Below, in pieces: positions 1,083 to 2,124 of a stretch of DNA of 7,506 nt; the stretch's first letter is position 1; the number at the start of each line of letters is the position of its first letter. The translations under genes were made by a program, and so were the position numbers. The notes beneath the pieces were generated by a model. That model did no database searches. It was not told the origin of the DNA and saw nothing but the letters and a program-made list of their open reading frames with translations. The DNA is from a virus (lineage: Duplodnaviria > Heunggongvirae > Uroviricota > Caudoviricetes). Where the stretch lies: positions 1 through 7,506 of the IMG/VR virus record IMGVR_UViG_2541047499_000011; one strand, given 5' to 3'.

Positions 1083-1111
1083 TTGCCTGGTGAATTGAAA
1101 ATATTGATAAT
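1083..1111 (+). promoter_or_regulatory. Putative sigma70 promoter (TTGCCT, 17-nt spacer, GATAAT) upstream of the CPBP gene; could instead be part of the late promoter pR'/qut region
   Basis: -35 TTGCCT at 1083-1088, a 17-nt spacer, -10 GATAAT at 1106-1111, inside an AT-rich intergenic region immediately downstream of Q. Predicted from sequence only. Confidence 0.35.
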
Positions 1112-1142
1112 CAATCTTCATCATTAAATAAAAGGAGTGCTT

Positions 1143-1961
1143 ATGTGGATTGTGTTAGTACTGTCACTGTCAACTCTCAGTTGGCATAAGGTAGTGGCTT
1201 TTTCATTGTTGACGGTGTCTGTTGTCCTGGCTGTGCTTAATGATATTATTGATTGGTCGGTGTTATTTTTTGTTGCTACAATCGTTTTTTTTATTATTTT
1301 GAAGTTCAACTGGAAATATAACGCCTGGGCTAAATCTATATATGAAGTTGGCATAGTTTTATCAGCCATAGCATTATTTTTCCATCTATGGCCAGGGTTT
1401 CACAATCCTGTAGTGCTAAATTCTGTTACTGTTGGCCCTCAAAGTACTCCCTATACAATGTATTTTAATTTTGATAAAGCGCTGGTGCCATTTTTGTTAG
1501 TCCTGTGTACATCTTCTTTGTTTAAAAAAGAAGTAAAATCAGAAGTGTCTTTGTGGAAGTGGGGGGCTCTGTCGCTCTCTGTTCCTCTTATCCTGTTTTT
1601 GGCTGTTTTTTTTGGTGGATTAAAGCCAGAGATTCATTTTCCTGAGTGGTTGCCAGAGTTTATATTGGCTAATTTGTTTTTTGTGTCTCTGGCAGAGGAA
1701 TCATTATTTAGAGGGTATATTCAATCACGGCTATCAGAAGTAACGTCTCCATTGGTTGCATTAATTGTGGCGGCTTTGTTGTTTGGTTTTTATCACTATT
1801 CAGGTGGTGCTTTACTTGTATTATTTGCCACGTTATCTGGTGTTGTGTATGGATTGTCATGGATGTGGAGTGGGCGTTTGTGGGTTGCCACCCTTTTCCA
1901 TTTTGGTTTGAATCTGTGTCACTTGTTATTCTTTACCTATCCATTTTTAAAACATAATTGA
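1143..1961 (+). CDS. CPBP-family intramembrane metalloprotease (CAAX protease / Abi family) with multiple predicted transmembrane segments
   Basis: Highly hydrophobic 272-aa protein carrying all three CPBP motifs: EExxxR (EESLFR), FxxxH (FGFYH) and HxxxN (HFGLN). Start placed at ATG 1143 with RBS AGGAG at 1133-1137 (5-nt spacing); the track's GTG at 1137 overlaps the RBS. The gene is visibly AT-rich compared with the flanking phage genes. Confidence 0.8.
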   Translation: MWIVLVLSLSTLSWHKVVAFSLLTVSVVLAVLNDIIDWSVLFFVATIVFFIILKFNWKYNAWAKSIYEVGIVLSAIALFFHLWPGFHNPVVLNSVTVGPQSTPYTMYFNFDKALVPFLLVLCTSSLFKKEVKSEVSLWKWGALSLSVPLILFLAVFFGGLKPEIHFPEWLPEFILANLFFVSLAEESLFRGYIQSRLSEVTSPLVALIVAALLFGFYHYSGGALLVLFATLSGVVYGLSWMWSGRLWVATLFHFGLNLCHLLFFTYPFLKHN

Positions 1962-2101
1962 TTTTTTCTATGGTTTTAAATTTATAAGACTGAAAAATAG
2001 CAGGACGTGACATTTGCATGAAAAATATGCACGGCAAAGCATTTACGTACGTAAAAAATCAGGTATGCTGTTAAGAGTGGTTATTTCGCCGCATAGCTTG
2101 A

Positions 2102-2124
2102 CCCCGCCTCTGAGCGGGTTTTTT
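2102..2124 (+). terminator. Putative intrinsic terminator downstream of the CPBP gene
   Basis: Stem CCCGC (2103-2107) pairs with GCGGG (2114-2118) around a 6-nt loop, followed by TTTTTT (2119-2124). The stem is short, so confidence is moderate; the same GCGGG could alternatively pair with CCCGC at 2127-2131. Confidence 0.45.

Follow-up and report, generated by a model that had tools for sequence, protein, structure and literature searches.

A CPBP-family gene as optional prophage cargo between the antiterminator gene Q and the late promoter pR'

We have analysed a 7,506-nt segment of a lambdoid prophage (the window in the following; positions 1 to 7,506 of the IMG/VR virus record IMGVR_UViG_2541047499_000011), with the focus on a 272-aa open reading frame (ORF) at 1143-1961, here called the CPBP gene. 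We find that this ORF is a real, intact gene of the CPBP family, that it is accessory, optional cargo of the lambdoid late-control module, and that, as read from the sequence, it occupies a gap of 1,050 bp that separates the antiterminator gene Q from the late promoter pR', which places it at the 3' end of the early-right transcription unit. The gene has been catalogued before and belongs to a known family; its genomic context was previously undescribed. As to function, our leading reading, which we hold tentatively, is that of accessory conversion cargo: a stand-alone and probably catalytically active intramembrane protease with an Enterobacterales-wide substrate, by which the prophage supplies E. 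coli with a function that is chromosomal in other genera. A first-pass annotation of the same DNA had described a candidate abortive-infection or exclusion cassette with the classic layout of an autonomous moron, and we will show that this layout was overstated. The positions of all features are collected in Table 1.

The CPBP protein matches PF02517.21 (Rce1-like) over aa 169-258 with an E value of 1.4e-19 and 70.6 bits, the cut-off being 22.4, which bears out the family assignment of the first-pass annotation. The three catalytic motifs that it had listed, EESLFR, FGFYH and HFGLN, are likewise in place and are conserved in 66 homologous sequences, among which E185, E186, R190, F214, H218 and H253 are invariant and N257 is at least 90% conserved. 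The matches to the CPBP/Mrt subfamily models of NCBIfam all lie below their cut-offs, and the protein thus belongs to none of those named subfamilies. The predicted structural model is confident and Rce1/SpdC-like, with the polytopic α-helical fold of the Rce1 type, and it carries the catalytic motifs on helices 170-200, 203-217 and 246-263. A hidden Markov model of the family gave no match to PDB chains at E≤1, and Rce1 and SpdC were recovered by fold comparison only. The strong ribosome-binding site (RBS) noted earlier is also there, as AGGAG at 1131-1135, 7 nt ahead of the ATG.

In the N-terminal half, the family-specific residues H81, G85, N88, N109, D111, K112, H165, P167 and W169 are conserved in the same way across the 66 sequences. 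Those invariant polar residues that lie outside the Pfam domain, namely H81, N88 (in PGFHN), N109-D111-K112 (in NFDK) and H165-P167-W169, fall within aa 81-112 and 165-169 (window 1383-1478 and 1635-1649). They are found beside a predicted β-hairpin loop and may constitute a substrate-recognition site or a second functional site. The identity to MmRce1 (PDB 4CAD), of the Rce1/CPBP type II CAAX-protease family (PF02517), is 16-17%, and that to S. aureus SpdC/LyrA (PDB 6U0O) is 14%. Unlike Rce1, the present subfamily has invariant motifs of its own, PGFHN, NFDK and H165-P167-W169, and a β-hairpin loop formed by residues 90-107, and bacteria lack the prenylated CAAX substrates of the Rce1 setting.

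The composition of the gene sets it apart from its surroundings. Its guanine-plus-cytosine (GC) content is 0.377 (0.352 at third codon positions), compared to 0.509 in the rest of the window, so that the AT-richness pointed out by the first-pass annotation is confirmed. The tract begins earlier than had been indicated, already in the 3' half of Q (GC 0.387), and continues through the Q-CPBP spacer (GC 0.285). Among the phage-borne copies the GC content is 0.36-0.41, with flanks at 0.48-0.51.

The gap between Q and pR' has quite different contents in related phages. In 933W and the Stx1/Stx2 phages it is empty (0 bp in 933W), and the C-terminus of Q overlaps pR'. The gap measures 1.64 kb in phage ev207, where it contains a reverse-strand porin gene, and 780 bp in the viral loci L032 and L033, where it contains a truncated ORF6N-domain gene; in the window its 1,050 bp hold the CPBP gene. 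The gap coordinates are 991-2042 in the window, 2938-2926 in L004, 2887-4527 in L005 and 3887-4667 in L032. The CPBP gene is absent from 933W, the Stx1/Stx2 phages, ev207 and L032/L033, all of which share the Q family. Together with the deviant composition, this agrees with the earlier description of the gene as accessory cargo, and in Q933W-family modules the Q-to-pR' gap forms a slot for cargo in its own right, separate from the one past tR' that is used by stx and the tRNAs. The CPBP gene resembles in this respect the cargo known from lambdoid phages in the interval from Q to the lysis genes (porins of the lc/nmpC type, stx, tRNAs), which is likewise optional, of deviant composition and located in the Q-to-holin region. 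The porin of ev207 occupies exactly the same gap, whereas stx and the tRNAs are downstream of pR'/tR' and Q-dependent; in Q933W-type modules the CPBP gene is upstream of pR' and not under late control.

We now consider the late-control region, on which the assignment of the transcription unit depends. Q is a PF06530 protein (fold class of the Q21 family, E=8.7e-52) with 78.5% amino-acid identity to Q of 933W/VT2-Sakai and 85% to that of phage ev207 (tblastn); its counterpart in the Sakai prophage Sp4 is ECs1084, annotated as antiterminator Q. In the 933W record, the annotation has pR' (-35 TTTACG, -10 TATCAT), a putative qut and the first terminator directly behind Q and in overlap with it. 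This annotated block aligns to 2042-2124 of the window, that is, downstream of the CPBP gene, and pR' of the window is aligned base for base with the annotated 933W pR' (AF125520 20666-20693). Transcription from pR' would start near position 2076. As pR' is located 81 nt past the CPBP stop codon, the CPBP gene is outside the Q-dependent late operon. Genes of that operon are expected downstream of pR' and its terminator, and the CPBP gene precedes both; the locus L018, discussed below, is the exception. We also considered the possibility that the site at 1083-1111 is itself pR', with the CPBP gene inside a constitutive pR'-tR' leader, but this was rejected, as the 933W pR'/qut/terminator block aligns to 2042-2124.

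The same alignment bears on the terminator. The first-pass annotation had assigned one at 2102-2124 to the cassette, and a hairpin followed by a T-run does exist at 2103-2124. By position it is homologous to the first terminator of 933W (L004 2986-3008) and, since the 933W block aligns at 2042-2124, it belongs to the late leader of the phage and not to the cassette. The location given in the annotation, between Q and the late genes, is loosely true, with the qualification that the gene is upstream of pR'. What has been called the classic layout of an autonomous moron is therefore only partly found: the gene is present or absent at the same site in related phages and it deviates in base composition, while the sole terminator, 2103-2124, lies beyond pR', is common to phages without the CPBP gene, and no terminator separates Q from the CPBP gene.

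Some further observations concern the late leader. In prophage L002 of the same strain, which has a DUF1133 antiterminator, homology to the window stops at the end of rusA and resumes exactly at the T-run of the hairpin; L002 has a hairpin at the same position as the window terminator, with a different stem sequence. This pattern indicates an exchangeable module in which Q, the cargo, pR' and the hairpin move together. In the Stx phages of Sakai, pR' is constitutive and its leader of 258 nt, which extends to tR', gives rise by processing to the small RNA (sRNA) StxS (Sy et al. 2020). The late leader of the window (2076-2124) is short, ca 48 nt, and lacks the StxS part, which is retained in L015 and 933W. 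The missing StxS-yielding segment amounts to ca 190 nt, and its absence looks like a deletion between the T-runs of the two terminators (window 2076-2124 compared with L015 5960-6250 and L004 2960-3217; L012 has the short form and L015 the long one). The single hairpin of the leader would be expected to terminate efficiently.

Two routes can be envisaged for the transcription of the CPBP gene. The first-pass annotation had given the gene its own sigma70 promoter at 1083-1111, and here the site exists and its position is conserved. It is kept in the copy of 83% identity, where the -35 element is improved to TTGTCA, and in each of the diverged phage copies a comparable promoter-like sequence is present, with a -10 element ending 27-37 nt before the ATG. 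As a promoter it is weakly confirmed, with a match to 9 of 12 consensus positions, and the region that contains it has 9 comparable sites compared to 5.6 ± 1.9 in shuffled sequences. A microarray signal for the gene in uninduced EDL933 rests on an inferred mapping of locus tags (Z-numbers). The second route follows from the interval between Q and the CPBP gene, in which no terminator-like site was found: after induction, read-through of the early-right transcript into the CPBP gene is to be expected.

The distribution of the gene is broad within E. coli. The DNA at 1000-2200 is 100% identical to chromosomes of E. coli O157:H7, and the gene is present in 592 of 5,426 complete E. coli genomes, nearly always as a single copy and with an intact ORF in about 570; the carriers are chiefly enterohaemorrhagic E. 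coli (EHEC) of serogroups O157, O145, O111, O26 and O121. The counterpart in Sakai is ECs1085 of prophage Sp4, a 'phage CAAX amino terminal protease family protein', and the RefSeq name is 'CPBP family intramembrane glutamic endopeptidase'. A literature search on ECs1085 and the neighbouring locus tags, and on CPBP proteins in connection with prophages, found no specific paper, in line with the earlier statement that the role of such genes in enterobacterial prophages is uncharacterised. The cassette has no match among 50,697 INPHARED phage records (megablast, tblastn), and the gene is thus known only from prophages and IMG/VR contigs. It is closely linked to Q: 605 genomes have the Q allele, compared to the 592 with the CPBP gene, and at identities of at least 99% the numbers are 548 and 547.

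This linkage extends to diverged copies. All 363 homologues detected are full-length PF02517 proteins of ca 270-287 aa, and the phage-borne copies at 83, 62, 59 and 55% identity each stand directly after Q and ahead of the lysis genes. Q is immediately upstream of the CPBP gene in 39 of 40 IMG/VR viral loci, and it is a PF06530 protein in 38 of these and the unrelated lambda-type PF03589 in one. The lone locus without an upstream Q, L071 (47% identity), has the gene past the tail-fibre gene of a prophage, beside non-phage genes. With the exception of L068, all viral loci with a PF06530 Q have the pR' block ca 85 nt past the CPBP stop codon, and with L012, L015 and L017 included the range is 80-110 nt; a pR' block downstream of the CPBP gene is also present in L012-L017.

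The locus with the lambda-type Q, L018, is arranged differently. At 4761-4860, between Q and the CPBP gene, it has a promoter-like TTGATT-18-TATGCT and a strong terminator (CCCTGCCGCC...GGCGGGG and a T-run), so that its CPBP gene appears to be downstream of a presumed pR'-tR'. The position of the CPBP gene relative to pR' is thus not fixed, which fits a self-contained unit of cargo. A side observation is a 7.2-kb draft contig (L030; GCA_017273225.1, DADNPS010000065.1), which at 298-4584 has Q, CPBP gene and pR' followed by an AraC-like gene and stx2AB. This order of Q, CPBP and stx2 is in no complete E. coli genome, where the matches begin only after the pR' block, and the contig could represent an Stx phage of rare recombinant origin or else a chimera that arose when a repeat was assembled.

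The homologues at ca 50% identity stand alone on the chromosomes of Enterobacter, Dickeya, Providencia and one metagenomic enterobacterium. Each is in a different housekeeping neighbourhood, stable within its species, and has the GC content of its genome. No phage, toxin or defence genes were found beside the chromosomal homologues examined. The absence of an obvious partner gene, already remarked upon by the first-pass annotation, holds for the family, as no conserved partner was found in either phage or chromosomal contexts. In a neighbour-joining (NJ) tree the clusters largely follow genera. Strict monophyly of the phage-borne copies was looked for and not found, since the chromosomal P0010 groups with the phage-borne P0007 and P0008 (unbootstrapped NJ tree). 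The ratio of nonsynonymous to synonymous substitution (dN/dS) among the phage copies, 0.13-0.23, indicates that the gene is under purifying selection.

The functional reading that we favour, accessory conversion cargo, builds on the family, the intact motifs, the fold, the accessory status, the position, the linkage to Q, the purifying selection, the lack of a partner and the stand-alone chromosomal orthologues. According to this proposal, the sigma70-type promoter ca 30 nt upstream of the RBS would give expression in the lysogen, and read-through of the early-right (pR...Q) transcript would add to it after induction; by either route transcription would stop at the late-leader terminator in the absence of antitermination. 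The polytopic inner-membrane protein would work alone and, by glutamate- and histidine-dependent cleavage, act on a membrane-embedded or membrane-proximal substrate common to the Enterobacterales. The result would be lysogenic conversion, in which the prophage provides an envelope function to E. coli, a species without a chromosomal copy, while other genera encode their own. That ameliorated, stand-alone homologues reside on the chromosomes of many Enterobacterales argues for a function of a general kind in the envelope more than for a specifically anti-phage one.

It is important to weigh a number of points that speak against this proposal. CPBP proteins are not always proteases: Abx1 of group B Streptococcus acts on CovS without its catalytic residues (PMC3578759), SpdC is described as a scaffold for SagB, and a lipoprotein N-acylation system of S. 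aureus is reported to involve a component of the CPBP family. With family roles as diverse as protease, bacteriocin immunity and non-proteolytic regulator or scaffold, membership alone does not fix the function. The positive-inside rule gives an ambiguous topology, also as to the side on which the active site opens, and the persistent AT-richness could mean silencing by H-NS, not expression.

An unlikely alternative is an anti-phage module, in which a membrane protease expressed from the prophage stops superinfecting phages, either by exclusion (e.g. by cleaving an inner-membrane entry factor or incoming ejection or tape-measure proteins) or by abortive infection. Exclusion proteins encoded by prophages and located in the inner membrane are known, namely HK97 gp15, T4 Imm and P22 SieA, and like the CPBP protein they are single proteins without a partner. 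The CPBP gene is moreover carried by prophages in a region known for cargo and is kept by purifying selection, and if it were co-transcribed with Q as a delayed-early gene, its expression would be similar to that of exclusion genes expressed early. The three exclusion proteins are, on the other hand, small and non-enzymatic and have no relation to the CPBP protein in sequence or fold. We know of no exclusion phenotype for the CPBP gene. None of the 5,027 PADLOC-DB v2 models was matched at E≤0.01, we found no paper tying CPBP proteins to validated phage defence, and the orthologues, which are stable, ameliorated and present in single copy, are located on the chromosome among housekeeping genes and not in defence islands. 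The labelling of PF02517 proteins as 'abortive infection protein', which underlies the link invoked by the first-pass annotation, is a 'historical miss-annotation' according to Firon et al. 2013 (PMC3578759). A role of the CPBP gene in exclusion or defence is, in summary, possible but unsupported.

A related scenario, to which we likewise assign little likelihood, is that the Q-linked CPBP protein is a single-gene conversion factor, an intramembrane protease made in the lysogen and boosted together with Q upon induction. Its target, which it would cleave or bind, would be a conserved host protein of the inner membrane, and the effect would be to exclude superinfecting phages or to rewire envelope or two-component signalling in EHEC. 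If this were true by way of exclusion, it would represent a protease-based defence mechanism that is missing from current catalogues.

Rather doubtful as well is a role as an accessory of the lytic cycle, where the last early-right gene (a late gene in phages with a lambda-type Q) would act ahead of lysis on membrane proteins of the host or the phage and remodel them, for instance so as to set the timing of lysis or to disable envelope stress signalling. That the phage-borne gene is always placed after Q and ahead of the lysis genes, and this with two Q families that are not related to each other, speaks for it, as do the terminator-free interval between Q and the CPBP gene and the promoter and strong terminator that in L018, read as pR'-tR', precede the CPBP gene and would make it a late gene there. 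Yet the gene is missing from the majority of phages that share the Q and the lysis cassettes, its distance from the holin gene in Sp4-type prophages exceeds 4 kb and is taken up by other cargo, it is intact in defective prophages (the late genes of Sp4/CP-933M are disrupted by insertion sequences), and the chromosomal orthologues have no phage context.

Still less probable is immunity to a membrane-active bacteriocin or peptide toxin, as known for some Gram-positive CPBP/Abi proteins. The precedent comes from PlnI and SkkI, which are in the same Pfam family and whose function depends on the catalytic motifs; immunity by CPBP/Abi proteins reportedly needs these motifs, and the CPBP protein is, as this scenario would have it, a stand-alone membrane protein. 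Genes of the PlnI/SkkI type reside in bacteriocin operons, while no bacteriocin, microcin or toxin gene is adjacent to the CPBP gene in the window or to its homologues in the ca 20 contexts examined, phage or chromosomal. It also counts against this option that less than 1% of Abi-domain proteins are encoded in bacteriocin loci (PMC3578759).

Another quite improbable option is a non-proteolytic regulator or scaffold, which would bind a host histidine kinase (cf. Abx1-CovS) or a cell-wall hydrolase (cf. SpdC-SagB) and alter signalling, possibly with effects on EHEC physiology or virulence. SpdC and Abx1 function through protein-protein contacts, with SagB and CovS, respectively, and need no proteolysis, whereas the catalytic residues are all invariant in the present family, which argues for selection on catalysis. 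Furthermore, SpdC and Abx1 are encoded by Gram-positive chromosomal genes, and the CPBP gene is phage cargo. Finally, a functionless passenger that hitch-hikes with the Q allele in E. coli is highly improbable: the near-perfect linkage to one Q allele and the AT-rich, likely H-NS-silenced DNA would suit it, but dN/dS remains at 0.13-0.23 across divergence down to 55% identity, and the intact ORFs and invariant motifs described above are equally at odds with it.

We turn finally to the rest of the window, which is mosaic and in one piece is found in none of the complete E. coli genomes. Positions 1-2495 are 99.9% identical to prophages of the Sp4/CP-933M type, and 2116-7506 are 99.4% identical to another prophage of the same strains, which has a DUF1133 antiterminator; the crossover must fall within the 380-bp overlap of the two halves. 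The junction is natural, because the IMG/VR contigs L037 and L039 carry it contiguously. The 65-aa ORF that follows pR' and the terminator opens the Q-dependent transcription unit and is outside the CPBP cassette; it is also present in prophages with a different antiterminator.

Downstream, the methyltransferase is a 352-aa N6/N4 DNA methyltransferase (PF01555; PADLOC MTase_II, E=1e-161), which stands where Sp4 has the AraC-like regulator ECs1087. No restriction partner for it was found in the window, and it is thus an orphan phage methylase. There are two tRNAs at the site, compared to three in the Sp4 context. The first is called Met (anticodon CAT) by ARAGORN, while its homologues in Sakai and 933W are annotated as tRNA-Ile (ileZ), whose CAT anticodon reads AUA after modification; the second is a tRNA-Arg (TCT). 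Two sRNAs adjoin each other between the tRNAs and the esterase gene, STnc100 at 4037-4245 (+; Rfam, 175 bits) and the anti-GcvB sRNA AgvB at 4247-4306 (-; Rfam, 56.6 bits compared to a gathering score of 56). The esterase has DUF1737, SASA (sialate O-acetylesterase-like) and DUF6645 domains and is a NanS-p-type gene, typical of the position upstream of the holin in EHEC prophages; the ORF as listed has a TTG start, ca 19 codons upstream of the PHROG/annotated start.

Table 1. Features of the 7,506-nt window, in order of position.
Feature	Position	Strand	Remarks
DUF968, 3' end	85-246		
RusA	259-630		
Antiterminator Q, 123 aa	620-991	+	ATG at 620; GTG at 611 is the start in the ORF list
Q-CPBP spacer	992-1142	+	GC 0.285; candidate promoter and RBS
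Candidate sigma70 promoter	1083-1111	+	TTGCCT-17-GATAAT; 9/12 consensus match, in AT-rich DNA
CPBP gene, 272 aa	1143-1961	+	
Family-specific invariant motif PGFHN	1392-1406		
Family-specific invariant motif NFDK	1467-1478		
Motif 1, EESLFR	1695-1712		aa 185-190
Motif 2, FGFYH	1782-1796		aa 214-218
Motif 3, HFGLN	1899-1913		aa 253-257
AT-rich spacer, CPBP stop to pR'	1962-2041	+	GC 0.31; 3' edge of cargo segment; 933W homology back at 2042
Late promoter pR'	2042-2069	+	-35 TTTACG 2042-2047, 16-nt spacer, -10 TATGCT 2064-2069
Conserved early-transcribed element TAAGAGTGGTTA	2072-2083	+	1 exact match in the window; 0.43 expected at ≤2 mismatches
Equivalent position of annotated 933W 'qut'	2083-2090	+	
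Intrinsic terminator hairpin	2103-2124	+	CCCGC-CTCTGA-GCGGG and T6; late leader, ca 48 nt from pR'
65-aa ORF, first after pR'/terminator	2248-2445	+	phrog_331; weak TrmB-like helix-turn-helix
Orphan DNA methyltransferase	2596-3654		
tRNA	3695-3770		
tRNA	3851-3927		
SASA/NanS-p-type esterase	4394-6388		
DUF826 gene	between esterase and holin		
Class II holin	7101-7316		

The results have some implications for the annotation of such prophages. Promoters and terminators predicted to be a gene's own in this region need to be checked against pR' and tR' of the phage before an autonomous moron is called, and the name 'Abi' of PF02517 should not serve as evidence of phage defence. Being present in about one ninth of the complete E. 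coli genomes, under selection and uncharacterised, the CPBP gene merits functional work, though as a modest target. Of more immediate use is the regulatory map, according to which, in Q933W-type modules, genes in the Q-to-pR' gap escape the control of Q.

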